Below are positions 5,831-54,574 of a stretch of DNA of 64,000 nucleotides, in pieces. The position numbers were made by a program, and so were the translations under genes. Position 1 is the first letter of the stretch, and every line of letters starts with the position of its first letter. The notes under the pieces were generated by a model. That model was not told where the DNA came from and ran no database searches. It saw only the letters and a program-made list of their open reading frames with translations. Source of the DNA: Bacteroidales bacterium UBA1176 (GTDB lineage Bacteria; Bacteroidota; Bacteroidia; Bacteroidales; WCHB1-69); the NCBI GenBank assembly GCA_002311645.1, contig DBYW01000011.1, positions 10,739 to 74,738 of the forward strand. The letters are read 5' to 3'.

Positions 5831-5850
5831 TTTTGTTTGATTTCTGTTCG

Positions 5851-5867
5851 CAAAAATAGTATCTTTG
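5851..5867. promoter_or_regulatory. Back-to-back divergent -7 boxes (the minus box for the LTD gene, the plus box for asd)
   Basis: CAAAAATA (5851-5858) is TATTTTTG on the minus strand. TATCTTTG (5860-5867) is on the plus strand. Confidence 0.45.
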
Positions 5868-5914
5868 CAGGCAGAAGTCAAGAATTGTTAATAACTTTTT
5901 AGAATCGAAAAACA

Positions 5915-24406: not shown

Positions 24407-24505
24407 TGTTTTGTGTTGTGATTATAGTCGAATTAAACTGAAAAATACGTGTGTAAAATTAAAAAAAATAATCATGTAAGGAAAGAAAAAGCAAGGAATT
24501 GTTGA

Positions 24506-26305: not shown

Positions 26306-26312
26306 TGCGATA

Positions 26313-26413
26313 AAGAAACTAAGAAATTAAGAAATTAAGAAATTAAGAAATTAAGAAGTTAAGAGGTTGATTATTAATAGTTTAATATTTTAATATTTTA
26401 ATGATTTAATAAC
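26313..26413. repeat. Tandem 8-nt word array (AAGAAATT, about 6 copies) followed by an AT-only word array
   Basis: AAGAAACTAAGAAATTAAGAAATTAAGAAATTAAGAAATTAAGAAGTTAAGAGGTT, then GATTATTAATAGTTTAATATTTTAATATTTTAATGATTTAATAAC. The second part overlaps the last codons of the 26390 gene. Confidence 0.85.
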
Positions 26414-30388: not shown

Positions 30389-30448
30389 AAGGAATGGAAA
30401 TTAGGGGTTACTTCCAAAAGATGCATTTTTTTGCGTTTTGTTACATCT

Positions 30449-34372: not shown

Positions 34373-34398
34373 ATTTTTATACTTTACGAAACAAAGCC

Positions 34399-34442
34399 GC
34401 AAATGTACATAAATTTTAAATATGCACTGACATGATGTAATT
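34399..34442 (-). promoter_or_regulatory. Promoter-containing 44-nt repeat, copy A (drives the 30449-34372 gene)
   Basis: GCAAATGTACATAAATTTTAAATATGCACTGACATGATGTAATT. The minus strand carries the -7 box TACATTTG (34400-34407), 28 nt upstream of the start at 34372. It is nearly identical to copy B at 39416-39459. Confidence 0.55.
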
Positions 34443-34522
34443 GTTGTGATTTTCCCGCACACCGTCCCTTCCCAGGGGTTGCAGCGCTCGTTCCCTACCA
34501 ACCCTGGCAGACCTCTGGCCTG

Positions 34523-34610
34523 CCAACCACCAACAACCAAAGACCCCATAGTTCATAGCCATAGTTCAAAGTTCCAACGACCAACCACCAACGACCAACC
34601 ACCAACAACC
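34523..34610. repeat. Low-complexity CCAAC-word array with an embedded CCATAGTTCA duplication
   Basis: CCAACCACCAACAACCAAAG ... CCATAGTTCATAGCCATAGTTCAAAGTTCC ... AACGACCAACCACCAACGACCAACCACCAACAACC. Confidence 0.85.
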
Positions 34611-39680: not shown

Positions 39681-39797
39681 CGTATAAAAAACGATATCCT
39701 GTGAACGGTTTTATCTGTAACTAAATTACTTTTTTTCCGTATATTTCTTACCGTAATTTTTTTAAAGATTTTGTTAGTAGATAAAATCCTCAATTAT

Positions 39798-40016
39798 ATG
39801 GCAACATATCCACACGTCGGTAAAATGATAAAGTCGCAGTTGAAAGCGCAAGGCCGCAGCGCTGTTTGGCTGGCTGCCCAGCTCAATTATGGCACGGACA
39901 ATATATACAAAATCCTGCAGCGGGACCATTTGTCCACGGATGTCTTGTGGAAAGTGTGCGGGGTTTTGGATCACGATTTCTTCAAAGAGATCTCCCAATG
40001 CATCTCGGGCGAGTGA
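39798..40016 (+). CDS. Small XRE-like helix-turn-helix protein (72 aa)
   Basis: GRSAVWLAAQLNYGTDNIYKILQRDHLSTDVLWKVCGVLDHDFF fits an HTH_3-type pattern. The track start 39771 is TTG; ATG 39798 is preferred. Confidence 0.5.
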   Translation: MATYPHVGKMIKSQLKAQGRSAVWLAAQLNYGTDNIYKILQRDHLSTDVLWKVCGVLDHDFFKEISQCISGE

Positions 40017-40020
40017 GTGC

Positions 40021-40048
40021 GGCCTGCAAGTCAGGCCTCTCTTTTTTT
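40021..40048 (+). terminator. Rho-independent terminator after the HTH gene
   Basis: GGCCTG, CAAGT loop, CAGGCC, followed by TCTCTTTTTTT. Confidence 0.65.
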
Positions 40049-40166: not shown

Positions 40167-40174
40167 TATTTTTG
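40167..40174 (+). promoter_or_regulatory. -7 promoter box for the FHA/kinase/phosphatase operon
   Basis: TATTTTTG lies 28 nt upstream of ATG 40202. It is the only TAnnTTTG box I noticed in the intergenic gaps of the 10-gene array. Confidence 0.45.
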
Positions 40175-40201: not shown

Positions 40202-41332
40202 ATGATTAGATGTGAAAATTGTGGCTGGAGCAATAATCCAGACGGAAGTACCACTTGTCAAAAATGCGATAGCCCTCTGATGAGAGCTTCTGCGTCTAAT
40301 TCCAACGAAAAAGCGGCTCAAGAAGAAAAGGTTGAGCCCAAACCCAACAGACCGTTGCGTCAGACCATACGCGAGATACTGAAGGATCCCTCCCCAAAGG
40401 ATTCCTCTCCCAAGGATTCTGAAAAATCCTCCAATGAAAGTCGTATGACGCAGAGAATCGGTAAAGTGGTTGAACCTGCCTCTTCTGAAAAGGAGGCCTC
40501 CGAACCCAAGTCTGAGCCCAAGACGGCGGAACAATCCAAGAGCACGGAGGCTTCTGCTCCTCAGGCCTCGGCGTGTCCTTCATGCGGATACCCTCTGCGC
40601 CCGGGCAGTCTGACGTGCCCCAAATGCAACACCTCCGTTGCCGCGCGCACCGTGCACGACAAACCCTCTCCGTTGAAGGGAACAGTCATAGAAGTTCCCC
40701 CGACAGAAGAGAAAGAGACGTCATCGGCACAGAAGAACACCGTTTATGAAGGCAACAACCCTCAAAAGGGTACTTTTTTCCAGGGTAAAGACCCTCAGAA
40801 AAGCACCCGTTATGAAGGCTTTAATCCTCAAAAATCCACCCGTTATGAAGGTGTCAATCCGTTGAGGGCGACGCGCCGTGAAGGCCAGTTCCCGCAAAAA
40901 GGCACTATCAATGAGCATATTGACGAGTCCCGGGAGCCGGTGAAGACCCCGAATCCTGCGTCCGCCGAGCCGAAGGTCGCCGAAGTTGTGAGTAAGGGTA
41001 CGGTTTTCCCAAGTCATCTGACAGATGATGAGCCACAAAAGGGAAAATCCATCCGCATGACAGCCTTGAATGTCGGTGAACGCCCCGATTTCGCTCCGAT
41101 AGACCTTGAGTTCTCGGACAAGGAGGTTGTCCTCAACAGGGGCAATGTCGCTCCCAACGACCTCACGATCTCTCGTTCCGCACAGGCCCTGCTCACCTGC
41201 GAGGATGGACATTGGTATATAGAAAACAAAAGTCGCCTGTTGACCACTTCATTGGTCCTTGACAAAAAACACGAGCTTCAGGATGGCGACATTGTAATCA
41301 TTGGGGACAAAATGTTCAGAATCGGCTTCTAA
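40202..41332 (+). CDS. Double zinc-ribbon protein with a disordered linker, NPQK tandem repeats and a divergent C-terminal FHA domain
   Basis: CENCGWSNNPDGSTTCQKC and CPSCGYPLRPGSLTCPKC. Five copies of (Y/F)(E/Q)GxNPQK(G/S)T. The C-terminus VVLNRG...ISRSAQALLTCEDGHWYIENKS...LQDGDIVIIGDKMFRI is FHA-like, with His replaced by Gln. Confidence 0.75.
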   Translation: MIRCENCGWSNNPDGSTTCQKCDSPLMRASASNSNEKAAQEEKVEPKPNRPLRQTIREILKDPSPKDSSPKDSEKSSNESRMTQRIGKVVEPASSEKEASEPKSEPKTAEQSKSTEASAPQASACPSCGYPLRPGSLTCPKCNTSVAARTVHDKPSPLKGTVIEVPPTEEKETSSAQKNTVYEGNNPQKGTFFQGKDPQKSTRYEGFNPQKSTRYEGVNPLRATRREGQFPQKGTINEHIDESREPVKTPNPASAEPKVAEVVSKGTVFPSHLTDDEPQKGKSIRMTALNVGERPDFAPIDLEFSDKEVVLNRGNVAPNDLTISRSAQALLTCEDGHWYIENKSRLLTTSLVLDKKHELQDGDIVIIGDKMFRIGF

Positions 41333-41336
41333 GGTT

Positions 41337-42629
41337 ATGTCAACAATTGTAAAGCGTTGTGATTTCAAGATAGATGACGTCATACAGGGAAGGTATGTCG
41401 TTCAAAAGGTGCTGGGCGAGGGTACATTCGGCAAGGTGTACAAGGTCACGGACAGACACGACCCCTCGAAGCCGGTGGCTTTCAAGCTGCTGAAATTGTG
41501 GGAAGTGCCCCCGACCATCCGCGAGGAACTCCAGCAGCGTTTCCAGATGGAGTTCGAGACGGGCCGCATCGACAGCCCCTACTTAGTCCGCTCCATGGAC
41601 TATGGCATCGAAGGCGGCAACCCTTTCTTCGTCATGGAGTTCTGTCCTAACGGAGACATCAGCAAGTTTATACCTTCCTCTCCTGCGGATGTGATTCCGG
41701 ACGAGAAGCTGTGCGACATTTTCAGCAATGTGCTTTTAGGCTTGCGTATGCTTCACAGTTGTGGCAAGGTGCATCGCGACTTGAAACCCGAGAACGTTTT
41801 ACTCAAGGAGAACGACTTTGCCGTGCTGACCGATTTCGGCATCTGCGGCGACCGCAATAACCGGATGACGGAGCGCAACATCTTAGGCAAGCCCATGCAG
41901 ATGTTCGGCACATACGCCTACATGCCGCCAGAACAACTGCGGCGCGTTAGGGGCAATGCCACGGTACTCCCCACCACCGACATTTTCTCTTTCGGCGTGC
42001 TGGTATACCAGCTTATCACGGGCCGGCTTCCATTCGGCAGCATGGAAGACCAGAACCAGCTGGTGATGTATCAGAAAAACGCCACCGCAGGGCAATGGGA
42101 TCGCACCCAGCTCAACCGCTACGGTGTCCATCCCCGCTGGCGCGAAATCGTCGAGGGCTGCCTTGTGCCCGACTACAAGGAGCGCTTCCAAAGTGTGGAT
42201 GAATGCCTTAAATGCATACCGAATGTGCATCATTCCCATACGGAGAATGTCGCGGCATCCTATCAGGGCAATGGCCGCCGGCTGCGTGTCATGCAGGGCG
42301 AGGAATACGGCAAGGTCTATGACTTGATGGCCCTGCTGAAAAGCCACGGCTCCTTGTTGTCCATGGGATGCAAGCCGGAAAACGACATCCATGTCCGCGA
42401 AGAACTCTCGTTTGTCATTTCCCGCCGCCATTGTACCTTGGAGACGGAAGACGGCGGGCGCACGTGGTTTGTGCGCGACGGACAGTGGATTGCGGACAAG
42501 CGCGAATGGTGCCGCTCCACCAACGGCACATTCCTGAATTCGACCGAAGTTACGCAAGACGGCCTGGAATTGTCACCGGGTGACATCTTGACCATCGGCG
42601 ATGCAAAACTTCGATATGAAATCTTTTAA
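41337..42629 (+). CDS. Hanks-type Ser/Thr protein kinase with a C-terminal FHA domain (no TM segment)
   Basis: GEGTFGKVYKV, VAFKLLK, HRDLKPENVLL, TDFG and YMPPEQ make up the kinase. FVISRRHCTLE...STNGTFLNSTEV...LSPGDILTIGDAKLRY is the FHA. The start is ATG 41337, 4 nt after the preceding stop. Confidence 0.9.
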   Translation: MSTIVKRCDFKIDDVIQGRYVVQKVLGEGTFGKVYKVTDRHDPSKPVAFKLLKLWEVPPTIREELQQRFQMEFETGRIDSPYLVRSMDYGIEGGNPFFVMEFCPNGDISKFIPSSPADVIPDEKLCDIFSNVLLGLRMLHSCGKVHRDLKPENVLLKENDFAVLTDFGICGDRNNRMTERNILGKPMQMFGTYAYMPPEQLRRVRGNATVLPTTDIFSFGVLVYQLITGRLPFGSMEDQNQLVMYQKNATAGQWDRTQLNRYGVHPRWREIVEGCLVPDYKERFQSVDECLKCIPNVHHSHTENVAASYQGNGRRLRVMQGEEYGKVYDLMALLKSHGSLLSMGCKPENDIHVREELSFVISRRHCTLETEDGGRTWFVRDGQWIADKREWCRSTNGTFLNSTEVTQDGLELSPGDILTIGDAKLRYEIF

Positions 42630-42675
42630 AATAGAAAACACAGTTAACTTTATTATTAATTAAAACAACAATGCT

Positions 42676-44190
42676 ATGAGTAAAACAGACTCCTTTAAGT
42701 CCTCCTTCGGCGGCACCGTCGGTTCCGGTATGAAATCCGTCTTCAACCCGTCCGGCAAGCGGTTCTACATATTGGAACACCGCAATGATTCGCAATACCA
42801 TCGTGCAGGCGAAGCCCAGAACATCATCGTGGATGAGGCCACCATCGGTCGTGACCCCAAGTGCACGGTCCGCTTCGATGAAGACTTCAACACGGTCAGC
42901 CGCATGCATGCCGCCATCCGCCACGAGGGCGAGAATTATGTGCTGTACCATTTGTCAAAGACCAACCCCACGCTCGTGAATGGTTCTCCGGTGCAGGGCA
43001 CTTATTATCTCAAAAACGGTGACGAGATCCAGCTCTCCTCCAACGGACCGCGTCTCGGATTCATCATCCCCCAAGGCGAACAGTCTCTCGTGAAGAGCCT
43101 CGGCCTCACCGCTCGTCTCAATCTTTTCCGCAAACAGGCCCTGCGTCCCTACAAGACCGCGCTGTCCATCCTTTGCGCCCTCCTCGCGCTCGCTATCGCC
43201 GGTGGCGTTATCTATGGCGTCAAGAGCAACAAGAAAATCAAAGAACTGACCATTTTGTCCGATCAGTTGAAACATCAACAAGATTCCTTGCTCTTGGAAC
43301 AGACGCGTATCCAAAACCTCCTTGACTCCATGGACAGAGTGGAACCCACCGTCAAGCATGTCTGGCACAATGGCGCTGTGGTTGATGCGAAAAAGCTCAA
43401 AGACGAAATGGAAGCCGGTATCGCTCCGGAATACATCACCTCGCTTGATCAGGTCAAGGGCAGTGTCTGCTATGTCGAGACAACCGTCATGGCGGATGTT
43501 GAAGGCGAACCGTTCGAGGTCGGCAAAGTGTCGGGCAGCGGTTTCCTCCTTTCTGACGGCACCTTCATCACCGCGCGTCACATGGTCACGCCGTGGCTCT
43601 ATCCCTCCAGCATCCTCGACCTCTTCATGAACTCCAAGGCTTCCACCGATGAGGTGTTCCTCTATTCCAAGGTTAAAGTGTTCTTTGGCGACAAGAGCTT
43701 TACCCTCAACAGCAACGACTTCAAGATGGATGTCAGCAAGGACGTGAAATGGACGGACGGCAACGGTACAGTTTACAATGTCGCCTTCCCCATGAACAGC
43801 GAGCACAACATGAAGGCCATGAGCACCGACTGGGCTGCAGCTGCCACCCGTTACAAAGGCAATATCCAAATCGATGCCGCCGCATCCATGTCTCCGGTCA
43901 GTGGCCAAGATGTGTACATCATGGGCTTCCCTGGCGGATTGGGCTATAAGGATAGTGAAGATGTCGAGAATATTGTCAATCCGATCTACAACCAGACCAC
44001 GATTGCCCGTCAGGGCCTCAACAATGCCGACTGCATCACCATTTCCAACACGGTTGACCACGGCAATTCCGGCGGTCCTGCCTTCATCATTCGCGACGGC
44101 AAGCTGTATGCCATTGGCATCGTCTCGCGTATCGACAAGGATTCGCAGAAATATGCTCACATCGTTCCTATCAAGAACGTTGTGCGTTAA
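42676..44190 (+). CDS. FHA domain, TM helix, coiled coil and trypsin-like serine peptidase fusion protein
   Basis: TIGRDPKCTVRF..VSRMHAAIRHEGENYVLYHLSKTNPTLVNG...GDEIQL is the FHA. ALSILCALLALAIAGGVIYGV is the TM. GSGFLLSDGTFITARHMV (His), DWAAA (candidate Asp) and VDHGNSGGPAF (Ser) form the protease triad. Confidence 0.85.
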   Translation: MSKTDSFKSSFGGTVGSGMKSVFNPSGKRFYILEHRNDSQYHRAGEAQNIIVDEATIGRDPKCTVRFDEDFNTVSRMHAAIRHEGENYVLYHLSKTNPTLVNGSPVQGTYYLKNGDEIQLSSNGPRLGFIIPQGEQSLVKSLGLTARLNLFRKQALRPYKTALSILCALLALAIAGGVIYGVKSNKKIKELTILSDQLKHQQDSLLLEQTRIQNLLDSMDRVEPTVKHVWHNGAVVDAKKLKDEMEAGIAPEYITSLDQVKGSVCYVETTVMADVEGEPFEVGKVSGSGFLLSDGTFITARHMVTPWLYPSSILDLFMNSKASTDEVFLYSKVKVFFGDKSFTLNSNDFKMDVSKDVKWTDGNGTVYNVAFPMNSEHNMKAMSTDWAAAATRYKGNIQIDAAASMSPVSGQDVYIMGFPGGLGYKDSEDVENIVNPIYNQTTIARQGLNNADCITISNTVDHGNSGGPAFIIRDGKLYAIGIVSRIDKDSQKYAHIVPIKNVVR

Positions 44191-44251
44191 TTGGAACAGG
44201 TTGTTTGAATGCCAATTTCTTTAGATTATTAAGTATTAAATATATTAAAGT

Positions 44252-45706
44252 ATGAGTGACATAACGATATGTCTCACCGCTGCCACTGACGTGGGCGTAT
44301 ATCGCAAGAATAACGAAGACAATTTCATCGTATGCCCCGATGTCAGTGTCGACAACTGGACCATCCCCCAAGACCCTAACGGAATTATTCCGTTGGGGTC
44401 TCGGGGCAGTCTTATTGTCGTCGCCGACGGCATGGGTGGGATGAATGCCGGCGAGGTTGCATCCGACATCGCCGTGCATACAGTCAAGGATTGTTTTGCA
44501 CCGGACAAGGTTACCCCGGAGGATTTTGCAACTCCAGCCGCCGCCTGCAAGTTTATGAAGCAGGTGATTTTGGAGGCTGACAACCGCATCAAGAAACATG
44601 CCAAAAAGCATTCCGACACCAGCGGCATGGGCACCACCATCGTGATGGCCTGGCTGTTGGACAACACGGCGTGCGTGGCATGGTGCGGTGACAGCCGGGC
44701 TTACGCCTTCCACCCGGAAACCGGCCTGCGTCAGCTGTCGAAGGACCACTCATACGTGCAGTCGTTGGTCGACTCCGGCCAGCTTCTGCCGGAATTGGCA
44801 TTCGATCATCCTGACAGCAACATCATAACTTCGAGTCTTGGCGACTTCGTCAACTCCGCATCGCCCGACAGTGTGGTCACATATCTCCATAACGGAGAGA
44901 TGCTGCTGCTTTGCAGTGATGGATTGTGCGGCATGATCCGCGACAATGAGACGGAGCAGATTCTCCAGCAGACGCACGAGGATCTCGACGCCTGCCGTCA
45001 GGCCCTGATTCAGGGTGCGCTCAATGCGGGAGGTCACGACAATGTGACCGTTGCCCTGCTCAAGGTGCTGTCGGGCGCTCCGGACCTGCCTCCTGTCACC
45101 AACACCCCGACCCGCACGCTCTCGCCCACGGAGGTTGAGCAGCAGGCGCAAGGCGAGGACCAGGCAATTGAAGAGCCTTCCGACATCGAAGAGTTGGTGA
45201 AACCTGCCGTTGAACAGAATGCTGCCAACGATCTCGACGCCAAGGCCAAAGCCAAGGTCGAAGAATTGAAGAAAAACAAGAAGAAAGGACGCAAGTTCTT
45301 CTGGACCCTCTTCATCCTCCTGCTTTTGGCGGGCGGCCTCTACCTCTTGTGGCGCTTCGTGCCGGGTATGCCGTTCCAGCCCAAGCAATGCGAGGGACCC
45401 GACTCAAACCAGGTTGAGATTGTAGACACCAACATAACGCCACCTTCACCAGAACCCGAAACCCCGGTCGTAGTCCCAGAAACCCCAAAACCTGAGAATG
45501 CTCCGGCTTCCGGGCCACAGAAACCGCAATCCACAACTCAACAAACCACAACTCAGCAAACCACTCCTTCTCCAGCCAACCCCATTGGCATGATCATTGA
45601 AAAACAGCAGGCGAAGACGTCTGCTACAACCGAGCCGACAGAAAAGCCGCAAACCGATGCGGACGCGTCAAACGAGGCCACGGAAACCAATTCAGAAGAG
45701 GAGTAG
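44252..45706 (+). CDS. PP2C-family Ser/Thr phosphatase with a C-terminal TM helix and a Pro/Thr/Gln-rich tail
   Basis: VGVYRKNNEDNF, VADGMGGMNAGEVAS, LLLCSDGL and GGHDNVTVAL make up the PP2C. The TM is FFWTLFILLLLAGGLYLLWRFV. The tail carries TTQQTTTQQTTPSP. Confidence 0.9.
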   Translation: MSDITICLTAATDVGVYRKNNEDNFIVCPDVSVDNWTIPQDPNGIIPLGSRGSLIVVADGMGGMNAGEVASDIAVHTVKDCFAPDKVTPEDFATPAAACKFMKQVILEADNRIKKHAKKHSDTSGMGTTIVMAWLLDNTACVAWCGDSRAYAFHPETGLRQLSKDHSYVQSLVDSGQLLPELAFDHPDSNIITSSLGDFVNSASPDSVVTYLHNGEMLLLCSDGLCGMIRDNETEQILQQTHEDLDACRQALIQGALNAGGHDNVTVALLKVLSGAPDLPPVTNTPTRTLSPTEVEQQAQGEDQAIEEPSDIEELVKPAVEQNAANDLDAKAKAKVEELKKNKKKGRKFFWTLFILLLLAGGLYLLWRFVPGMPFQPKQCEGPDSNQVEIVDTNITPPSPEPETPVVVPETPKPENAPASGPQKPQSTTQQTTTQQTTPSPANPIGMIIEKQQAKTSATTEPTEKPQTDADASNEATETNSEEE

Positions 45707-45747
45707 TTTAGAGTTTTTAAGTACAATAAGAAAAAATAGAAACAGAT

Positions 45748-47139
45748 ATGTTGACAGAAAATAGCATGTTTGCCGGACGTTACCGGTTGTTGAAGAAAAT
45801 TGGCGGAGGCGGTTTCTCCGTCGTATGGAAAGCCATTGACACGATGGCGGGCAATTTGATTGTCGCCATTAAAATCTATGTGCCTGACAATGGCATGGAC
45901 GAGGAGGGCTTGCGCATCTTCCGGGATGAGTTCTCCTTGGTGTTCGCGCTGAACCATACGAATTTGCTGCGCCCTACTTATTATGACATTTGTGACGACT
46001 CTCCCTACCTGGTGCTGCCCTTCTGCGACAGGGGCAGCGCGGAGCGTCTGATCAACCCCGAACGGCCGCTGCCTGAAAGAAATGTGGTAGAGTTTATACG
46101 CGACGTCGCGGCAGCCTTGGCATACCTGCACAGTCAGGAACCGCCCATCATCCATCAGGACATCAAGCCGGGCAACGTGCTTTTGTCCAATGATGGCTCC
46201 TATAAGGTCACGGACTTCGGTATCAGCACCCGTATGCGCAGCACGTTGCGCAAGACGGTGGGTGCCTCCGAGATGGACAAGCTCTCCAAGAGCAATGGCA
46301 GCGGATCCATCCCCTATATGGGACCGGAACGCTTCTCCGCCTCGCCCACGCCGGTCAAGGCCAGCGATGTTTGGGCTCTCGGTGCCGCCGCCTTCGAGAT
46401 TATGACCGGCGACGTGCCGTTCGACGAGATGTTCGGCGGAAGCCTCCAGAAAAACGGCGCGGATGTGCCAGTTATCCCCGGTAGCTATTCCAAGGGACTC
46501 AAGAAATTAGTCTACAAGTGTCTCGCCAAGGAGACCTGGGATCGTCCCACTGCCGCCCGCATCGAACAGTGCTGCAACGAATACCTCGAAACGGGCAAGT
46601 GGCGTCTCCACCTGCTCGATCCGCCTGTCGTATGGCAGCGCTATCGCAGAAAAGTGATCGCCATCATTGCCGTCGCCATCCCGATTTTGCTCGGCGTCGC
46701 ATTCTTCTCCTTTGAGCACCACAAGGCCTCGAAACTCGTCTCCAAAGTGGAGAGCCTCTCTGTCGTGGCCCAGCAGCATTTGGACGGGAGCCTCATGGAC
46801 ATAGACCGCGCACGGCGTTCCTCCATCATGGAGTGCGAGAACTTGGGATTGGAAAAATCCTTGTGCACTCACATCGACACGCTCAACATGATATGCAGGA
46901 ATCTCCAATCGATTTCCTCCGACTGGACCTTCAAGCATTTCGTGGACGAAGAGAAAAGAGTTCAGCCCGACAAGGTGCTCACAGGGATCGTCATTGCTTT
47001 GGACGACCAATATGATATCTCGATGGATATACGTGAAAAGAATATCGAGGACGGTTTTCCCACAGATGTTGCTACTATGCTCATCAACACCTTGCGTGGC
47101 TTCAGCTTCTTGTCGAAGAACCAGAGCGCGAAACAGTAA
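45748..47139 (+). CDS. Membrane-anchored Hanks-type Ser/Thr protein kinase with a ~125-aa extracytoplasmic C-terminal domain
   Basis: GGGGFSVVWKA, VAIKIY, HQDIKPGNVLL, TDFG and YMGPER make up the kinase. The TM is VIAIIAVAIPILLGVAFFSF. No PASTA or other sensor domain was recognisable. Confidence 0.9.
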   Translation: MLTENSMFAGRYRLLKKIGGGGFSVVWKAIDTMAGNLIVAIKIYVPDNGMDEEGLRIFRDEFSLVFALNHTNLLRPTYYDICDDSPYLVLPFCDRGSAERLINPERPLPERNVVEFIRDVAAALAYLHSQEPPIIHQDIKPGNVLLSNDGSYKVTDFGISTRMRSTLRKTVGASEMDKLSKSNGSGSIPYMGPERFSASPTPVKASDVWALGAAAFEIMTGDVPFDEMFGGSLQKNGADVPVIPGSYSKGLKKLVYKCLAKETWDRPTAARIEQCCNEYLETGKWRLHLLDPPVVWQRYRRKVIAIIAVAIPILLGVAFFSFEHHKASKLVSKVESLSVVAQQHLDGSLMDIDRARRSSIMECENLGLEKSLCTHIDTLNMICRNLQSISSDWTFKHFVDEEKRVQPDKVLTGIVIALDDQYDISMDIREKNIEDGFPTDVATMLINTLRGFSFLSKNQSAKQ

Positions 47140-47155
47140 TTAAAATGTTGATTTG

Positions 47156-48889
47156 ATGCAAGACAAGCCAACCCGAGTTAAAGTCCTTGTTTTCACTGTG
47201 GTGTCGTTGCTCATGGCTACGACGGCGTTCGCGCAGTGCATGGCCCCTCGTGAGCAAAGGGGCGACGGCTTCGCGAAGTCGCACAAATACGACCAGGCCA
47301 TCAGCGACTATGCCAATGCCTTGACCTGCCCTGAACTGACCACCGCCGACAAGACCCGCCTCAACAAGAAAATCCAAAACTGCAAGGCTCTCAAGGAAAA
47401 GGAGAGAAAGGAGAAGGAAAATAGGGAAAAGGCTGCTCGTGCGGCGCGTGGGAATGACAATGCCACTGCGGATATGCAACAGGACTCTACCGAAAACCAT
47501 GCCATCAGCGACGAGGTGGCAGACACCGGAGATGATGCTTTGGACACCCTGATCGGGAAAGAGGAGATAGATCCATACCAAGTGCTCCGGGAACTGCATG
47601 AGAAATGGAAGAAGACCGCTTACATGGGTAGTATCCGCGTCAACATCGAGGGCCAGTGCTCGGACGGCTCGAAACTTCTCAACGAAGAGATGGACTATGT
47701 CGTGCCCAAGGTCTTCTACTCGCCGCTCGACCCCGACTCGGTCCATGAGGTGATGTTGGATGTCTGCATATTGCGCAAGGAAAGTATCATCATCCGCAAG
47801 GAATGCCCGGTGGAGGTAAAGCCTGTGTCGGGCGATTTTATCATCAAGGACCTGATATGGTCGCCGGAATACGAGCCAGGCGACTACACCTTCCAGATCA
47901 TGTACAATGGCACCCCCATCTATTTGGGCGAGTTCGTCGTCCAGCAAAAGAAAATCAAGTTGATTGTCAACACTATCGATGCGGAGTATGTGGACACCAT
48001 GCACCGGATTATGGTCAACAATAAAGACACGGTGCTGACGTTCACAGTTGAGGCCAACGCCTCTTACACGGTGACGTTGCCCGACTGGTGCATGCTGAGG
48101 CAAAAGAAGGGCGACATGTTCGAGGTCGAGGTGCTGCGGAACACGGCCAAGGATGCGCGCATCGGTGCCGGCTCCGTGACGGCCGCATCGCGCAACAAGA
48201 ACAACTTCAAGACCATTAAGTTCAACATCCGTCAAGCCGGCACGCAGTACAAGTTCGATGTCAACAACAAAACGACCACTCTTTCGCGGATCATGAAGGC
48301 CCGGGGCGGCAACATCTCCTTGATGGCGCACACCGACGCCCCTTCCTGCCGTATTGAGGGCGCTTCCGCGTGGTGCTCCGGTGCGGTGACCCGCGACAAG
48401 TACAACCTGAATCTTCAGATCCATGTCAGCACCAACAAGAGTGCCCGCTCAAGATACCACACGCTCTACGCGATTGTCTACGATGGCGTTGACAAGGCCA
48501 TCGACAGCATCCCCATTGCCATCCGCCAACGCGGGAACATCCCCATTTTAGAGTCCATCTTCATTCCGGGTGCAGGCTTGATCAGCAAGGGTCGCAACGG
48601 CCTTGGCGGTGTCATTCTCTTCGGAGAAATCCTTACGGGCGGAGTCGCCATCGCCAACCATTTCGTCTGCGACTATTCCAAGAAAAACGATAGGACGAAT
48701 TTCTTCACCCGAAACGAAGCCACCATTCGCGCATCCTCCCTCGGCGCGTGCATAGGCATCTATGTGCTGAACTTGGTGCTTACGCCGACGTTGAAGGCCA
48801 AAGAGAACTATAATATCAGCTTTTATCCAGCGGTGCAGCCCTCCATGGGGCAGGCAACCCTCTCTATGGGGTTCTCCTGCCGGTTTTAA
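47156..48889 (+). CDS. Secreted/membrane protein with two BACON-like modules and a C-terminal double-helix membrane anchor (DUF5683-like); paralog A
   Basis: Signal ...TTAFAQ|C, then CMAPREQRGDGF. BACON-like DWCMLRQKKGDMFEVEVLRNTAKDARIGAGSVTA. C-terminus IFIPGAGLISKG plus two hydrophobic helices, ending ...SMGFSCRF. Confidence 0.6.
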   Translation: MQDKPTRVKVLVFTVVSLLMATTAFAQCMAPREQRGDGFAKSHKYDQAISDYANALTCPELTTADKTRLNKKIQNCKALKEKERKEKENREKAARAARGNDNATADMQQDSTENHAISDEVADTGDDALDTLIGKEEIDPYQVLRELHEKWKKTAYMGSIRVNIEGQCSDGSKLLNEEMDYVVPKVFYSPLDPDSVHEVMLDVCILRKESIIIRKECPVEVKPVSGDFIIKDLIWSPEYEPGDYTFQIMYNGTPIYLGEFVVQQKKIKLIVNTIDAEYVDTMHRIMVNNKDTVLTFTVEANASYTVTLPDWCMLRQKKGDMFEVEVLRNTAKDARIGAGSVTAASRNKNNFKTIKFNIRQAGTQYKFDVNNKTTTLSRIMKARGGNISLMAHTDAPSCRIEGASAWCSGAVTRDKYNLNLQIHVSTNKSARSRYHTLYAIVYDGVDKAIDSIPIAIRQRGNIPILESIFIPGAGLISKGRNGLGGVILFGEILTGGVAIANHFVCDYSKKNDRTNFFTRNEATIRASSLGACIGIYVLNLVLTPTLKAKENYNISFYPAVQPSMGQATLSMGFSCRF

Positions 48890-48919: not shown

Positions 48920-50521
48920 ATGAGGAAAATTCTTACCTTAATCTGCCTTGTGGTCCTTCCATGTATGCTTTGGGCGCAATGTTTCACCCCCCGGGAGCAA
49001 AGGGGGGACTCTTTTTTTGCTGAAAAAGATTACAAGGCTGCAAAAGACTGGTATGAAAAAGCCAAGACCTGTATGGACCTGACGAACAGCGACAAGTCAC
49101 GTTTGAACGGTAAAATTGCGAAATGTAACAAGCTTATCAAACAGCCCGATGACCAGCCACAAACTCCGCAGCCTACCAAACCCGAAACCGAATGGGTCAA
49201 GACCGCCTATATGCAGGACCCGGAAATAAGTCTCGAGTTCTATAAAGACGGGGATAAACTGCAAATCCCTGCGCAGGATATGGACTATTTTGTCCCGGTT
49301 GTGCGGTATGTGCCCAAAGACACCGTCAAGGACCATGTGGCAAGCCTGCGCCTGCGTGTCTGGCAGGGCACCGACCTGAGCCGGCGTCCCAAGTCGGACG
49401 TGAACCTCGATTGCCAAGTGCTGCATAACAAGCGGGAAACGAGCTTGGAACAGCAGAAATGGAATCATGGCACAGGTGTTTTCACCATCGAGATCACGAA
49501 CCGCTACAACAACACAACCCTCTACAAGGACGTCATAGAGGTCCTTGAGAAAACCATCAGTCTCCAAGTAAACACCAGCAGCGGAACACCGGCTGAAAAC
49601 TTGCTGATTGGGAAAGGAACTCCGACAAAGGTGTATCGCTACATGGTCGCCACCAATGCCGAGAGCTTCCAGGCTGTTTCCACCGCCTCGGACTGGTGCA
49701 AGATCGAGAATATAACCGGTAACAGTTTTGATGTCCGTGTGTTAGAGAATAACGGTCGCGACATGCGAGTCGCCGACTGCCGCGTGACTGCCGGCGACAA
49801 GACGGTCTCCTTCACCGTGACGCAGGAGGGCAAGTCCTTCTTCCTGACGGTGGACGGGTATTCTACACGCATGCCGGATCAGACGTGCCGCGCCCGGGGC
49901 ACCCGGCTCTATTTCCCCGTCAAGTCCAATGCCCGGTGGTCTGTCAAAGGCGACAACAGATGGTGTCGTTGGAACTCGGCGATGAGCAAAGACACATTGG
50001 TGCTCGATATTGCGCCCAACGACAAGGCTTCCAAACGCGAGATAGAGATACAGGTGGTGGCTGTGGACGGCAACGGGGTGGAGGTTGACCGCCTTGACAT
50101 GCGCATTGTGCAGTCCGGCGACTTGGCCATTGTGAAATCCCTCTTTATTCCCGGCTTAGGCCAGATGGGCAGGGGACAGGTGGGCAAGGGCTCCGCTATC
50201 CTTGTCGGTGAGGTGGTCTGTGCCGGCACGGCTCTTATTACATACGCTTCGGGCAAATCGAAGCTGAAACTGATGAACAGCAGCATAGAAACTGGCAATT
50301 ACGACGATTTTATGAAAGCAAGCAAGAGCTACAAGAACTTGCGTGCCGCCAACTATACTTTTTGGAGCTTCGCAGGAGCCCTTTACGTCTATAATCTTGT
50401 GGACGCCATTGTTTCCAAGGGAAAACCGAACTACAAGAACTCCAAGATATCTTTCGCCCCCGTCGCCGCCCCGACATTGGAAGGGCCTGTGTTCTCGATG
50501 GGGTTCAACTTTAAATTCTGA
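48920..50521 (+). CDS. Paralog B of the preceding gene (BACON-like modules plus a C-terminal membrane anchor)
   Basis: Signal ...CMLWAQ|C, then CFTPREQRGDSF. DWCKIENITGNSFDVRVLENNGRDMRVADCRVTAGDKTVSFTVTQEG. LFIPGLGQMGRGQVGKGSAILVGE. It ends ...SMGFNFKF. Confidence 0.6.
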   Translation: MRKILTLICLVVLPCMLWAQCFTPREQRGDSFFAEKDYKAAKDWYEKAKTCMDLTNSDKSRLNGKIAKCNKLIKQPDDQPQTPQPTKPETEWVKTAYMQDPEISLEFYKDGDKLQIPAQDMDYFVPVVRYVPKDTVKDHVASLRLRVWQGTDLSRRPKSDVNLDCQVLHNKRETSLEQQKWNHGTGVFTIEITNRYNNTTLYKDVIEVLEKTISLQVNTSSGTPAENLLIGKGTPTKVYRYMVATNAESFQAVSTASDWCKIENITGNSFDVRVLENNGRDMRVADCRVTAGDKTVSFTVTQEGKSFFLTVDGYSTRMPDQTCRARGTRLYFPVKSNARWSVKGDNRWCRWNSAMSKDTLVLDIAPNDKASKREIEIQVVAVDGNGVEVDRLDMRIVQSGDLAIVKSLFIPGLGQMGRGQVGKGSAILVGEVVCAGTALITYASGKSKLKLMNSSIETGNYDDFMKASKSYKNLRAANYTFWSFAGALYVYNLVDAIVSKGKPNYKNSKISFAPVAAPTLEGPVFSMGFNFKF

Positions 50522-50523
50522 CT

Positions 50524-51843
50524 ATGAAAAACAAAGCCATACTCATACTGACCGCGCTTGCGTTTATTCTCCCGTCGGGTTGTCTCAAGAAACTCGAGAA
50601 AGAGGGCATCTTCAGTGACACCCTGGTGTTCGGGACCGTTACTGTTAATGATGCCGACCACACTCCAGCTTCAAATGTTGTGGTCTCCTTGGTGGATGGC
50701 GAGAACATGGTACGTTCCACCACCACAGATGCGCGCGGCTATTACGAAATATCCGTCTCCGCCGAAGAAATCCATAAGGGTTTCGCCTTTAAGCTTACCG
50801 CCGACTCGGTGTATCAGGACGCGGTGTTCTCCTTGGAAGAGGTGGGCTTCGGCTTAGAGCGTTACGAGCTCAACATGTCGCTCGACGGTCCCTCTTTGCC
50901 GCAGGTGCAAACACTTGAAGTGTCCAATGTCACGACCCAAAGTGCGCTTGCCAAGGGCGTGGTCACGAATAACGGGAACCTGCCTCTCCAGTCGCGCGGT
51001 TTTTGCTGGAGCCGTTTGCCCAATCCCACCGTCAACGATGCCCACGTGAACGTGCCGGGCGGGGTAGGGGAATTCACCGCCACCCTCACCGGTCTTGAAC
51101 CGGCGATAACCTACTATGTGCGCGCATACGCCTCCAACAGCCAGGGTCTCGTGTATGGCGCGGAATTGTCGTTCACTACAGAGGGCGTGTTCCATTGCGG
51201 CAACTCCAAGGTCTACGACTTCGACGGCAATCCTTATAACACCCTGCTGATCGGCACCCAGTGCTGGACTCGCGAGAGCATGCGCACCACGCATTACTCC
51301 GACGGCACGGCAATCCCGGCGGGCACGACCAGCGGCGACACTCCGTACCGCTACGCCCCCGGCAACGACGAGTCCAACGTCTCCACCTACGGCTATCTCT
51401 ACAACTGGTCTGCCACCATGCGCGGCGCGGCATCTGGACAGTCGCCGGTACAGGGTGTCTGCCCTGACGGCTGGCACGTGCCTACCGACGCGGAGTGGAC
51501 CCAGCTGACCAATACGGTCTCCTCGTCAGGCTTCGTTTGCGGCGGCAACCCCGACAACAACGCCAAGGCCTTGGCTGCCACATGGGGCTGGAACAGCAGC
51601 AATGTGTCCTGCTCCGTGGGCGAGGACCCCTCATCCAACAATGTCACCACATTCACGGCACTGCCCGCTGGCTTCTATTCCGGCACCTATAGCAACATGG
51701 GCGGCTATGTCTATTTCTGGACATCGACCGAAAGCGGCTCGTCCACAAGCTACAGCCGTCTTATCCGGTACGACAATCCGAATGTCGCTGTCAGGTCAAA
51801 CGGCAGGAAAAACGGCAATCTCGTGCGCTGTGTGTTAGATTGA
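50524..51843 (+). CDS. Lipoprotein: CarboxypepD_reg-like domain, Fn3-like module and FISUMP domain
   Basis: Lipobox ILPSGC. GTVTVNDADHTPASNVVVSLVDGENMVRSTTTDARGYYEI. FCWSRLPNPT...YYVRAYASNSQGLVYG. DFDGNPYNTLLIGTQCWTRESMR...CPDGWHVPTDAEW...LVRCVLD. The ATG is 2 nt after the upstream stop. Confidence 0.75.
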   Translation: MKNKAILILTALAFILPSGCLKKLEKEGIFSDTLVFGTVTVNDADHTPASNVVVSLVDGENMVRSTTTDARGYYEISVSAEEIHKGFAFKLTADSVYQDAVFSLEEVGFGLERYELNMSLDGPSLPQVQTLEVSNVTTQSALAKGVVTNNGNLPLQSRGFCWSRLPNPTVNDAHVNVPGGVGEFTATLTGLEPAITYYVRAYASNSQGLVYGAELSFTTEGVFHCGNSKVYDFDGNPYNTLLIGTQCWTRESMRTTHYSDGTAIPAGTTSGDTPYRYAPGNDESNVSTYGYLYNWSATMRGAASGQSPVQGVCPDGWHVPTDAEWTQLTNTVSSSGFVCGGNPDNNAKALAATWGWNSSNVSCSVGEDPSSNNVTTFTALPAGFYSGTYSNMGGYVYFWTSTESGSSTSYSRLIRYDNPNVAVRSNGRKNGNLVRCVLD

Positions 51844-51901: not shown

Positions 51902-54574
51902 ATGAAAAAAATAACAGGCATATTTTTGATTTCCTTGCTTTTGTTGCAGACACTTGTGGCGCAAGTGCCGAACAGGTTCGTCTACCAGGCGGTGGTGCGG
52001 AACAACAGCAACAATTCGTTGGTCACCAACCAGCAGATAGGTGTCAGGATTTCCATCCGCCAGGGCTCGGAAAATGGCGCGTCCGTATACACGGAGACGC
52101 ACCATCCGACCACGAACGTCAACGGCCTTATGACGGTGGAGGTGGGCGGCGGCACCCCGCAGGGCGGCTCTGTCTTCTCCAACATCGACTGGTCGTTGGG
52201 CACCTTTTTCCTGAAGGTGGACCTCGATCTGAACGGAGGGAACAATTACGTGGACTATTCCACGCAGCAGATATTGAGTGTGCCGTATGCGTTGTATTCC
52301 GAGACCGCCGGCAATGTGCCCACCTTGAACATCACCCCCGTCTCCAACGGCTATGAGTTGGAGTTGTCAAATCCCGGGGGCGGCAGCCAGACCTATTCGC
52401 TGCATCATGGCACGCAGGGACCGCAGGGACCGACAGGTCCGCAGGGACCCTCTGGCCCGCAAGGCCTGGCCGGACACTCCATCAGCGTGCAGTCGGTGCC
52501 CACCTCTAACGGCAATTTGGTGACCATGCACTATTATGACCAGAATGGGCAGCAGCAGAGCGTCCAGTTCAATGTGACGAACGGCCAGCAAGGTCCGCAG
52601 GGCCCCGCCGGCCAGTCGGGCGTGTCGCCCACCATCGTCACCCACCAGTATGCGGACAGCACCGTGGTGGTCATCACGGATGTGGACACCACGCAGTCGT
52701 TCACCATCCGCAACGGCGCGCAGGGTCCCGCCGGCCCTCCGGGTCCCGCCGGCCCTCCGGGAATATCCCCGAGAGTTACCACCACGCCGACCACGAACGG
52801 CACCATCGTCACCATCACCGACTCGGTCGGCACGCGCTCGTTCACGATCCATAACGGCGCCACCGGCCCGCAAGGCCCCGCCGGACAGGACGGCACTCCC
52901 GGCACCCCCGGCTTCTCCCCGACAGTTGCCACCTTTCCGAACAGTAGTGGCACGACCGTCACCATCACGGATGCCACCGGTCCTCACACCTTCACTGTCC
53001 AGAACGGACTCTCCGCCTACCAGATATGGCTGAATGCGGGCAACAGCGGCACCGAGGCTGACTTCCTGGCCGCCACCACGCCCCAGACCCTCTCGCTTTC
53101 CGGCGACCAGCTCTCCATCTCCGGCGGCAACAGCGTGACCCTGCCCATGACGCACACTACGGGCGCCACCGGCCTCTCCGCCTACCAGATATGGCTCAAC
53201 AATGGCCATAGCGGCTCCGAAGCCGACTTCTTGGCCTCCCTGCAAGGCACCAATGGCTACAGCCCAGTGGTTACCATTGAACCGCTCGACTCCATGCGCA
53301 CCCGGCTCACCATCACCGATGCCAACGGCCCGCACGCTTTTGTGCTGCGCAACGGCATCGACGGCGGCCCGTTCATCCAGGAGCAGGCCGACTGGACCGA
53401 GTCTAATGCGTCCGAAAAATCCTATATCCTCAACAAACCGTCGTTGGCGGCTGTGGCCACTTCCGGCAGCTACAACGACCTCTTGAACAGGCCCACGCTT
53501 TTCAGCGGCAACTACAACGACCTGGCCAACCGTCCCACCATACCGACCGTCCCCACCAATGTAGGCGCGTTCAACAACGATGCCGGCTATGTCTCCAATA
53601 GCGGTTGCGACACGGTGGCCTTCTGCGACATGATGGCGCAGGCGAGTCTTCTGAACGCCCGCATTGCTGCCCTGCAGGCCCGGATGGGCCAGGGTGGGGG
53701 AGCCGCCAATGTCACCCTGCCGACGGTTACGACCGCCGCGGTGACGAATATTGGCCATGCGGATGCCACGTGTGGCGGCAATGTGACCTCCGACGGCGGC
53801 GGCATTGTTGCCGCCAAGGGGGTGTGCTGGAACACTACCGGCAGCCCTACCATTGCCGACAACCACACCATAGACGGCGGCGGACGCGGCGCGTTTGTCA
53901 GCGCTGTCCGTGCCTTGGTGCCTGGCACCACCTACCACGTGCGGGCTTACGCCACCAACGACGCGGGCACGGCGTATGGTGACGAGGTAACCTTTACAAC
54001 TGAGCAGCTTCCTGCCGCCGTGGGCGACATTCTCTGCACCGACGGCACGTGGGTCTCCTTAAGCGATTATGCCGCCTCCGGCAAGACCGCCATGGGCGTG
54101 ATCTTCCATGTGGACGACTCCGGCATGCACGGCTGGGCCGTGAATCTGCACGACGACTGCCCATACTACTGTAGATGGGGCGACTACGACACAGACATTC
54201 CCGATTTGCCCAACTTTACGAATAGCACGGTGGCATGTGCCGACACGGCGGGCTACAGTAACACGCAGATCATCCGCAACTATGGAAACGCTGCCACATA
54301 CTCCGCCGCCTGGGCTGTGGACTTTAACAACGGTTGGTACCTGCCTGCCATGGGACAACTGAATACACTGTACAACGCACGCAATACGGTAGAACCATCC
54401 TTGACTGCGGTGGGCGGCACTTTGTTTGGGAATGGTGATCATTTCTGGTCGTCAACAGAATATAGTGAGATCCATGCGTGGTTCGTGACCGGCTATGGCA
54501 CGACCGGCTATGGTTACGTGACCTACCATAATAAGGCCAACGAGCATCTGGTGCGTAGTGTTCGTTCGTTTTAG
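51902..54574 (+). CDS. Collagen-like/tail-fibre-like secreted protein with a C-terminal DUF1566 (Lcl C-terminal)-like lectin-type head
   Basis: GPQGPTGPQGPSGPQGLAG and three further GXY tracts alternate with ~30-aa SPxV...VTITD...F(T/V)(I/V)xNG units. LSAYQIWLN(A/N)G.SG.EADFLA occurs twice. ADWTESNASEKSYILNKP. An Fn3-like VCWNTTGSPT...YHVRAYATNDAGTAYG. GWYLPAMGQLNTLY...FWSSTEY...LVRSVRSF. Confidence 0.8.
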   Translation: MKKITGIFLISLLLLQTLVAQVPNRFVYQAVVRNNSNNSLVTNQQIGVRISIRQGSENGASVYTETHHPTTNVNGLMTVEVGGGTPQGGSVFSNIDWSLGTFFLKVDLDLNGGNNYVDYSTQQILSVPYALYSETAGNVPTLNITPVSNGYELELSNPGGGSQTYSLHHGTQGPQGPTGPQGPSGPQGLAGHSISVQSVPTSNGNLVTMHYYDQNGQQQSVQFNVTNGQQGPQGPAGQSGVSPTIVTHQYADSTVVVITDVDTTQSFTIRNGAQGPAGPPGPAGPPGISPRVTTTPTTNGTIVTITDSVGTRSFTIHNGATGPQGPAGQDGTPGTPGFSPTVATFPNSSGTTVTITDATGPHTFTVQNGLSAYQIWLNAGNSGTEADFLAATTPQTLSLSGDQLSISGGNSVTLPMTHTTGATGLSAYQIWLNNGHSGSEADFLASLQGTNGYSPVVTIEPLDSMRTRLTITDANGPHAFVLRNGIDGGPFIQEQADWTESNASEKSYILNKPSLAAVATSGSYNDLLNRPTLFSGNYNDLANRPTIPTVPTNVGAFNNDAGYVSNSGCDTVAFCDMMAQASLLNARIAALQARMGQGGGAANVTLPTVTTAAVTNIGHADATCGGNVTSDGGGIVAAKGVCWNTTGSPTIADNHTIDGGGRGAFVSAVRALVPGTTYHVRAYATNDAGTAYGDEVTFTTEQLPAAVGDILCTDGTWVSLSDYAASGKTAMGVIFHVDDSGMHGWAVNLHDDCPYYCRWGDYDTDIPDLPNFTNSTVACADTAGYSNTQIIRNYGNAATYSAAWAVDFNNGWYLPAMGQLNTLYNARNTVEPSLTAVGGTLFGNGDHFWSSTEYSEIHAWFVTGYGTTGYGYVTYHNKANEHLVRSVRSF

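Follow-up and report, generated by a model that had tools for sequence, protein, structure and literature searches.

A five-gene kinase, phosphatase and FHA cluster of Bacteroidales that includes a phosphothreonine reader fused to an HtrA-like protease

The stretch of DNA analyzed here, 64,000 nt of contig DBYW01000011.1 from Bacteroidales bacterium UBA1176 (the window, by which we mean this whole stretch), carries at 40202-47139 a run of five genes, called g1 to g5 in order, that encode two Hanks-type kinases, a PP2C phosphatase, a membrane-anchored serine protease, and three FHA domains (Table 1). Signaling clusters built from kinases, a phosphatase, and FHA proteins are known in kind. New in this one are a protein that joins an FHA domain, a transmembrane (TM) helix, and an HtrA-like protease (g3), and an adaptor that combines zinc ribbons with an FHA domain (g1). 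We conclude that g1 to g5 constitute one envelope-spanning Ser/Thr phospho-signaling module of Bacteroidales, and we hold this conclusion much more firmly than anything proposed below about the direction of its signal or its substrates.

Domain architecture of the five proteins

Domains were called using Pfam and NCBIfam profile searches, and TM segments using a hydrophobicity scan. An earlier note on this DNA, made from its letters alone, had described five consecutive plus-strand genes with gaps of 4-61 nt, and the coordinates of the open reading frames (ORFs) agree, with successive gaps of 4, 46, 61, and 41 nt. Pfam also bears out the kinase, PP2C, and trypsin-like peptidase assignments made there, along with the FHA domains of g2 and g3. 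The hydrophobicity scan is in line with the proposal that g3, g4, and g5 are membrane-anchored and that g2 is soluble; it found one hydrophobic segment in each of the first three and none in g1 or g2.

Pfam detects both an FHA domain (1.4e-15) and a Trypsin_2 peptidase (3.5e-9) in g3. The protein is organized as an FHA domain (residues 56-120), a juxtamembrane helix (131-160), a TM segment (161-179), a coiled coil (180-255), and the protease (256-504), with which it terminates; neither Pfam nor the profile search matched a PDZ domain. Across an alignment of 21 diverse g3 relatives, the catalytic triad (H302/D385/S465) is invariant, as are FHA residues G58-R59, S75-R76, H78, N97, and T99. The AlphaFold model is confident over residues ~255-504 and contains one continuous helix (144-219) that encompasses the juxtamembrane, TM, and coiled-coil segments. 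When the protease was compared with the Protein Data Bank (PDB) using Foldseek, the closest structures were HtrA1, HtrA3, DegP, DegS, and plant Deg2 (E ~1e-9), and sequence profile matches concur with this HtrA-type result. Invariant columns make up 41% of the FHA domain and 50% of the juxtamembrane helix, versus 5% of the TM segment, 1% of the coiled coil, and 12% of the protease, identifying the cytoplasmic face of the protein as its most constrained part.

For g1, the earlier note had proposed a double zinc ribbon followed by a divergent FHA domain. Pfam matches Zn_Ribbon_1 and DZR at residues 120-146, which correspond to the second ribbon. Metagenome gene callers place the start of the protein at Met27; however, its orthologs open with MRCxNCGW...CxKC, and the first ribbon (residues 1-26) and the start at 40202 are therefore real and the Met27 calls too short. 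The FHA domain went undetected when the window protein was searched with Pfam, and this part of the proposal is upheld by other means. An hhalign comparison of 24 g1 C termini with the g3 family aligned them on the g3 FHA domain (E = 3e-5). Profile searches against the PDB yielded six matches, all weak and all to FHA domains, with Sulfolobus ArnA at the top (E = 0.04). Precomputed PF00498 annotations are present on many of the 115 family members, which were recovered with an alignment of the C terminus (a full-length search, which includes the low-complexity linker, gave 3 matches). Finally, FHA structures account for 50 of the 50 listed Foldseek matches to the AlphaFold model of this region (residues ~300-376; pLDDT 72), headed by OdhI and GarA with TM-scores of 0.6-0.7. 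On the strength of this model and the hhalign comparison, the C terminus of g1 is predicted to adopt the FHA beta-sandwich fold. In the family alignment, its binding pocket retains an invariant Arg57 and a Ser/Thr at position 68, with Gln72 replacing the His and the Asn position unconserved.

A second feature of g1 is a recurring Thr motif that approximates [KRGSNA]-T-[VILFR]-x-[EPQ] in the ortholog alignment. A typical ortholog has one such motif following ribbon 1 and another, the invariant GT[VI]NP, ~45 residues N-terminal of the FHA core. The window protein has eight copies (residues 161-267), compared with one to three in most orthologs, within a Thr-motif-rich stretch at 40676-41011 (residues 159-270) to which a tandem repeat of 11-residue units contributes. 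The same expansion is present in L007, the locus of a water-buffalo rumen Bacteroidales metagenome-assembled genome (MAG) whose g3 is 96% identical to that of the window. By analogy, g1 looks like an adaptor of the GarA/OdhI or ArnA type that would be switched by phosphothreonine (pThr). With GarA and OdhI it shares, in addition to the structural matches, a conserved Thr motif N-terminal of the FHA domain, as an intramolecular switch needs. Unlike them, it lacks the ETTS motif, carries zinc ribbons, has no link to 2-oxoglutarate metabolism, and is without the FHA His and Asn. ArnA, of the Sulfolobus archaellum regulatory network, has the same zinc ribbon plus FHA architecture, and its partners include Hanks-type kinases, a phosphatase, and the vWA protein ArnB. 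ArnA is archaeal, however, the sequence similarity is marginal, and g1 differs in having two ribbons and repeated Thr motifs. No match to a vWA (ArnB-like) family was found in the cluster proteins or in the neighborhood families that we scanned.

Both kinases retain DFG and have a conserved activation-loop Thr in their families. The soluble kinase g2 (Pkinase, 8.8e-43; FHA, 2.4e-13) is of the RD type (HRDLKPEN), as are its 76 orthologs. Its start is best placed at the ATG at 41337, which is favored by gene calls on identical metagenome contigs and agrees with ortholog lengths; the mechanical ORF list reaches a TTG at 41301. The membrane kinase g5 (Pkinase, 3.4e-42) is non-RD (HQDIKPGN), with HQD found in 86 of 105 family members, and its TM segment (303-321) precedes a 142-residue ectodomain that matches L007 alone. 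In g4, Pfam detects PP2C_2 (4.9e-15), the motifs DGMGG, GDSR, SDGL, and DN are kept, and the TM segment (349-367) is followed by a low-complexity tail of 117 residues. Because these FHA, PP2C, and kinase domains have cytoplasmic phosphoproteins as their targets and no signal peptide in front of them, three parts should be extracytoplasmic: the g3 protease, the g4 tail, and the C-terminal domain of g5.

The earlier note had counted two writers, one eraser, and three readers of pThr marks. The writers and the eraser hold, as catalytic motifs are intact in the predicted sequences of both kinases, the PP2C, and also the protease. The readers hold in part: judged by motifs, only one of the three FHA domains, that of g3, is fully canonical. 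The domain in g1 is without the His and Asn noted above, and in that of g2 the window and L007 carry G-C (SMGCKP) in place of the phosphate-contacting G-R present in at least 90% of the 77 family members. This Arg-to-Cys change is specific to the lineage of these two loci, and the SR.H and NGT motifs of the window domain are retained. The note had further called the system a phosphorelay, which is the wrong term: the components point to Ser/Thr phosphorylation that is reversible and read by FHA domains, rather than to phosphotransfer.

Table 1. Features of the cluster and its surroundings, in window coordinates
Feature	Position	Strand	Description
Por_Secre_tail proteins (four, two >1,300 aa) and one CHU_C type IX secretion signal	23402-34549, 4118-5881	-	Sorting domains
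g0	39771-40016	+	Small upstream gene, outside the unit
Terminator-like hairpin and T-run, TCTCTTTTTT	40021-40037	+	6-bp stem with 5 GC pairs; 3' of g0
Candidate Bacteroidetes-type -7 promoter element, TATTTTTG	40167-40174	+	Fits TAnnTTTG; 28 nt 5' of the g1 ATG; read by eye
g1	40202-41332	+	376 aa; double zinc ribbon, Thr motifs, divergent FHA
33-nt tandem repeat in g1	40793-40860	+	11-aa units; part source of the eight Thr motifs
g2	41337-42629	+	430 aa; soluble RD Hanks kinase (residues 20-290) and FHA (residues 342-421)
g3	42676-44190	+	504 aa; FHA-TM-HtrA-like S1 protease
g4	44252-45706	+	484 aa; PP2C (residues 12-270), linker, TM, low-complexity tail
g5	45748-47139	+	463 aa; Hanks kinase (residues 12-272), TM, ectodomain
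g6	47153-48889	+	13 nt past g5; signal peptide with AFA/QC site; N-module HMM 2.2e-22; BACON 4.4e-4, below cutoff
g7	48920-50521	+	30 nt past g6; secreted; BACON 8e-11; N-module HMM 5.4e-23; DUF5683-like C terminus
g8	50524-51843	+	2 nt past g7; lipoprotein-like FISUMP protein; Fib_succ_major 8.1e-34
g9	51902-54574	+	58 nt past g8; surface fiber-like; Collagen 4.4e-8; Lcl_C-like C terminus, 4.9e-6, below cutoff
g10	54713-64000	+	138 nt past g9; at least 3,095 aa, exceeds window end; Fib_succ_major 4.5e-156, five stretches
ORFs opposite g10	55055-56890, 60983-63889	-	Probably shadows of g10

Conservation of the cluster and its variable parts

Homologs of g3 are numerous. A collection clustered at 90% identity contains 1,540 of them, nearly all ~490-530 aa in length and most with the same Pfam domains, and they fall into 288 clusters at 50% identity (E <= 1e-30). 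A pattern-based scan of GTDB species representatives, one genome per species, found g3 encoded in at least 214 genomes. We fetched 80 of these 214 stretches and mapped the window proteins onto the ORFs of each; the near-identical L007 was excluded from synteny counts, leaving 79 other loci, and each denominator comprises the loci with the relevant flank. On the same strand as g3 and upstream of it, g2 occurs in 63/66 loci and g1 in 62/66. Downstream, g4 is found in every one of 59 loci and a g5-type kinase in 49 of them. Of the 50 loci that are fully flanked, 46 contain every one of the five gene types, with four of these types in the same order and on the same strand and the membrane kinase located on either side.

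These loci carry record labels of Prevotella/Segatella, Bacteroides, Muribaculaceae, Paludibacteraceae, Rikenellaceae/Alistipes, Odoribacteraceae, Tannerella, Lentimicrobiaceae, Salinivirgaceae, and Ca. Symbiothrix, and they originate mostly from gut, rumen, and termite-gut MAGs. One carrier, Bacteroides sp. 519 (NZ_QVMJ01000005, locus L032), looks from the title of its record to be an isolate. That five independent signaling genes came to lie side by side by chance is contradicted by their recurrence across so many families with short gaps, and we regard this explanation as scarcely credible. Four loci (L041, L049, L051, and L069) are labeled Firmicutes bacterium CAG:95, Azospirillum sp. CAG:239, Acutalibacteraceae, or Clostridia; these non-Bacteroidales labels are probably errors of MAG binning or labeling.

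Variants in gene order track taxonomy, suggesting vertical descent. Moreover, plasmid, phage, and IMG/VR collections contained no g3 relatives, and the neighbors of the cluster in the window are ordinary chromosomal genes (MATE, AlgH-like, GNAT, Big_5, type IX secretion cargo, and polysaccharide genes). From these three observations, the module looks chromosomal and, as far as gene content and order can indicate, mostly vertically inherited.

Around the five genes, the relatives differ in accessory content. A secreted protein of ~280-330 aa, here called gX, is encoded between g3 and g4 in 53/76 loci (e.g., L008:11471-12472 and L013:11539-12381), and a small protein with an FHA domain and multiple TM segments is found in 32/76 (e.g., L086:13909-14694 and L042:10001-10696). 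The two are largely complementary, with gX alone in 41 loci, the small FHA membrane protein alone in 20, both in 12, and neither in 3. Conserved motifs of gX (PW..D, GWLVW, GG.YV.P) are followed by a basic C-terminal tail, and the protein has no Pfam match and no PDB match. We also asked whether gX might be a paralog of the g3 protease that has degenerated. An hhalign comparison gave a probability of 9.7% (E = 0.0033) over the His region only, a weak lead that hints at a degenerate protease fold.

A MotA/ExbB-family protein (7.5e-14) is encoded in 12 loci, mostly of the Muribaculaceae/Bacteroides type, and in 11 of them it is paired with a protein containing a TM segment and a coiled coil, the pair lying between g2 and g3 (e.g., L033:3141-3881 and L031:8303-9214). 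On this basis, certain variants of the module may possess an envelope motor. Extra g5-type kinases with varied ectodomains are also common among relatives. Some bear RHS repeats: these kinases reach ~1,220-1,280 aa, with the RHS portion extracytoplasmic, and are followed by a YbjN-like protein (L055:7188-10868, L026, L069, L084, and L086). A tblastn search of the window for gX, the MotA/ExbB-like pair, the small FHA membrane protein, and the other accessory families found none of them and returned only cross-matches to the g3 FHA domain. The window thus carries a rare, stripped-down version of the cluster: 73 of 76 relatives encode gX, the small FHA membrane protein, or both, and here the two are missing.

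Variable accessories such as the kinase paralogs, the RHS kinases, and the MotA/ExbB-like pair, which is reminiscent of Zorya, could belong to a toxin-antitoxin or anti-phage system resembling KKP or other kinase-based defenses. Growth arrest by the kinases would then follow when an invader is detected at the envelope or when the phosphatase can no longer keep up, and the protease would be an effector. KKP of Pf prophages consists of a kinase with a cold-shock domain (PfkA), a kinase with an FHA domain (PfkB), and a PP2C (PfpC), and has been reported in some Bacteroidetes (PMC11341870). The window cluster resembles it in grouping two kinases with a PP2C, in the C-terminal FHA domain on one kinase, and in the position of g4 two genes from g2. 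The same authors suggest that the cold-shock-domain kinase may be a defining component (PMC11341870), however, and neither g2 nor g5 has a Pfam match to this domain (PF00313). Further differences from KKP are the membrane anchoring of the second kinase and the phosphatase, the two additional FHA proteins (one of them the protease), the order of the genes, and the chromosomal rather than prophage-borne setting. Both kinases score on the PADLOC mad6 and PD-T4-6 kinase models, but the matches cover the generic kinase domain only; together with weak protease matches, this was all that PADLOC returned, and it is no evidence of a defense system. Three of the five proteins being membrane-anchored with periplasmic parts, together with the absence of g3 relatives from phages, plasmids, and viral contigs, the ordinary chromosomal neighbors, and the taxonomy-tracking gene order, make a defense role improbable.

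Unit boundaries, downstream surface proteins, and a possible role in growth and division

The terminator-like hairpin 3' of g0 marks the 5' boundary of the unit, and g0 lies outside it; among the related loci, counterparts of g0 were found in L007 only, plus a weak one in L008. Between this hairpin and g1 lies a match to the Bacteroides promoter consensus TAnnTTTG, which we consider a candidate g1 promoter element. A sigma-70 promoter scan returned background levels only, using a model that is ill-suited to Bacteroidetes. An Rfam scan of the whole window found no RNA family, and hence no known leader or riboswitch 5' of g1. On the plus strand, there is no strong terminator between g1 and 55300, where the scan ended just beyond the start of g10. 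From the tight same-strand spacing of the genes, the transcription unit probably extends from g1 to g9 or g10 and comprises more than five genes.

The genes that follow g5 encode secreted and surface proteins (Table 1). g6, which ends in a hydrophobic hairpin, and g7 are paralogs and share what we call the N-module, an N-terminal segment of ~60 aa with the pattern Cys...TPR-like...Cys...Cys that is followed by one or more BACON domains and a variable C terminus. The C termini of N-module proteins are outer membrane beta-barrel-like, DUF5683-like, or FISUMP-like. A search with a hidden Markov model (HMM) found N-module proteins in 44/80 related loci, usually just 3' of the kinases (e.g., L016:6097-8016 and L059:14519-15895), and placed the N-module inside the ectodomains of two kinases. 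Five FISUMP domains occur in the stop-free frame of g10, together with segments resembling fn3 and Lcl_C and an N terminus similar to that of g9. Elsewhere in the window, Por_Secre_tail and CHU_C sorting domains indicate that the organism possesses a type IX secretion system.

These neighbors bear on a further model, in which the cluster acts as a regulator of growth and division in the actinobacterial style: kinases and FHA proteins would control the assembly of peptidoglycan or the outer membrane, and the protease would trim envelope enzymes, as MarP acts on RipA. The actinobacterial fhaA-fhaB-pstP-rodA-pbpA-pknA-pknB cluster has the same write, erase, and read logic, with two Hanks kinases, a membrane PP2C, and FHA proteins in one conserved operon; in both clusters, the phosphatase and at least one kinase are single-pass membrane proteins. 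The wide and mostly vertical conservation of the Bacteroidales cluster fits such a role. g4, with its predicted TM segment, falls just short of the Stp1/IreP equivalog cutoff (Stp1_PP2C_phos, 212.8 bits; cutoff 230), and the g3 protease has a weak match to the MarP family of M. tuberculosis, far below the family cutoff (30 versus 250 bits). The earlier note had remarked on the absence of RodA or penicillin-binding protein (PBP), PASTA, and type VI secretion genes, and the window ORFs that we scanned (all with 200 aa or more, along with g10) bear this out, the sole related find being a distant YkuD L,D-transpeptidase on the opposite strand. No SEDS or transpeptidase (PBP) gene occurs in the cluster, in the 25 largest neighborhood families, or in the families scanned with Pfam. 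Neither g2 nor g5 has a Pfam match to PASTA, and the PknB_PASTA_kin model (NF033483) gives 139 bits for g2 and 147 for g5 against a cutoff of 450. Unlike the actinobacterial cluster, that of the window lacks RodA/PbpA and a PASTA ectodomain; has a soluble kinase-FHA fusion, an FHA-TM-periplasmic protease, and a double-zinc-ribbon FHA protein; and belongs to a host with an outer membrane. With secreted BACON/FISUMP-type surface proteins, not cell-wall enzymes, as its recurrent neighbors, we give this model little credence.

The PpkA/PppA/Fha1 (TagH) checkpoint of type VI secretion systems also joins a membrane kinase, a PP2C, and an FHA reader, in that case for post-translational control of an envelope machine. 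The TagH model TIGR03354 scores 20.8 bits for g2 and 31.2 for g3 (cutoff 120.25), and no type VI secretion family was found among the scanned window proteins.

Proposed working, direction of the signal, and significance

The explanation that best accommodates these observations is one in which membrane kinases sense, FHA readers dock, the g3 protease is switched, and the PP2C resets the system. Membrane-anchored non-RD kinases of the g5 type, whose ectodomains evolve fast, would respond to a periplasmic or surface cue. The kinases would autophosphorylate on the activation-loop Thr and phosphorylate the g1 Thr motifs and each other, with a contribution from the soluble RD kinase g2. The FHA domains of g3, of g1, and in most lineages of g2 would then dock on pThr sites, assembling a complex at the membrane. 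Occupancy of the g3 FHA domain may be relayed via the juxtamembrane helix, the TM segment, and the coiled coil so that the periplasmic protease is clustered or activated. HtrA relatives are controlled by oligomerization. Targets of the protease would lie in the envelope, the likeliest being the kinase ectodomains or co-encoded secreted proteins (g6-g10 and, in relatives, gX and the N-module/BACON proteins), and g4 would reset the pThr marks. We advance this full scheme tentatively, as slightly more apt to fail in some part than to hold throughout.

Several points weigh against it. The co-transcription of the cluster with g6-g10 is inferred from spacing only. The loss of the canonical Arg from the g2 FHA domain, and the absence of the canonical His and Asn from that of g1, make pThr binding by both domains uncertain. 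In 73 g1 orthologs we counted 139 Thr motifs, versus 12.4 +/- 3.4 in shuffled sequences (~11-fold), but this enrichment is indicative only, because the motif was defined on the sequences in which it was counted, and these sequences are related to one another. In the g3 model, confidence is low over the N-terminal 76 residues. Furthermore, with the accessory genes of 73/76 relatives missing from the window, the family-level picture may transfer to it incompletely.

The direction in which g3 carries information is a separate matter. Read inside-out, cytoplasmic pThr recognized by the g3 FHA domain would, via the continuous helix, turn on the periplasmic HtrA-like protease, which would remodel the co-encoded surface or secreted proteins; we view this specific switch as possible but doubtful. 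If true, it would be a phosphorylation-gated protease switch running from the cytoplasm to the periplasm, opposite in sense to cascades of regulated intramembrane proteolysis, and gut Bacteroidales would gain their first defined Hanks-kinase pathway. The signal could instead run outside-in, with the g3 protease as the input of an envelope quality sensor that binds or cleaves misfolded or foreign envelope proteins; the FHA domain would signal this by recruiting phosphorylated kinases and g1 or by letting them go. The HtrA-family protein DegS is an established sensor of periplasmic stress, and HtrA, DegS, and DegP are the closest structural matches of g3. The concentration of conservation in the FHA domain and juxtamembrane helix fits a fixed reporting interface with a variable sensing side, and the g5 ectodomain is small and lineage-specific. 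PDZ, the sensing domain of DegS, is nevertheless absent from g3, and the kinases have ectodomains of their own, which vary among several paralogs and fit the kinases as sensors. We rate an outside-in sensor as rather unlikely. In either direction, g3 shares with HtrA, DegS, and MarP the design of a membrane-anchored periplasmic serine protease with a chymotrypsin fold and an intact triad, and differs from HtrA proteases (MEROPS S1C) in lacking PDZ, in carrying a regulatory FHA domain across the membrane, and in the long coiled coil between TM segment and protease.

In the full-text literature that we searched, we found no paper describing the cluster and, in agreement with the earlier note, no characterized equivalent in Bacteroidota. 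A 2020 paper on conflict systems by Kaur et al. mentions FHA and PP2C in other contexts only, and the retrieved text of a review of oral-bacterial phosphorylation, including its kinase table, contains no Hanks kinase for Porphyromonas. Judging from this literature, Hanks-type Ser/Thr signaling seems to have gone essentially without study in Bacteroidota, which is the dominant Gram-negative phylum in the gut and rumen, and the cluster offers a conserved, self-contained entry point to it. We also found no characterized precedent for a pThr reader joined to a periplasmic protease by a single helix. The breadth of the module in gut Bacteroidales, the lack of a characterized Hanks pathway in the literature searched, and the reader-protease fusion make it a worthwhile target for experiments. 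The cluster could explain how gut Bacteroidales regulate the large BACON, FISUMP, and collagen-like surface proteins whose genes adjoin it. Should phosphorylation prove to gate periplasmic proteolysis, or proteolysis to gate phosphorylation, the module would represent a new route for information across the inner membrane of diderm bacteria.

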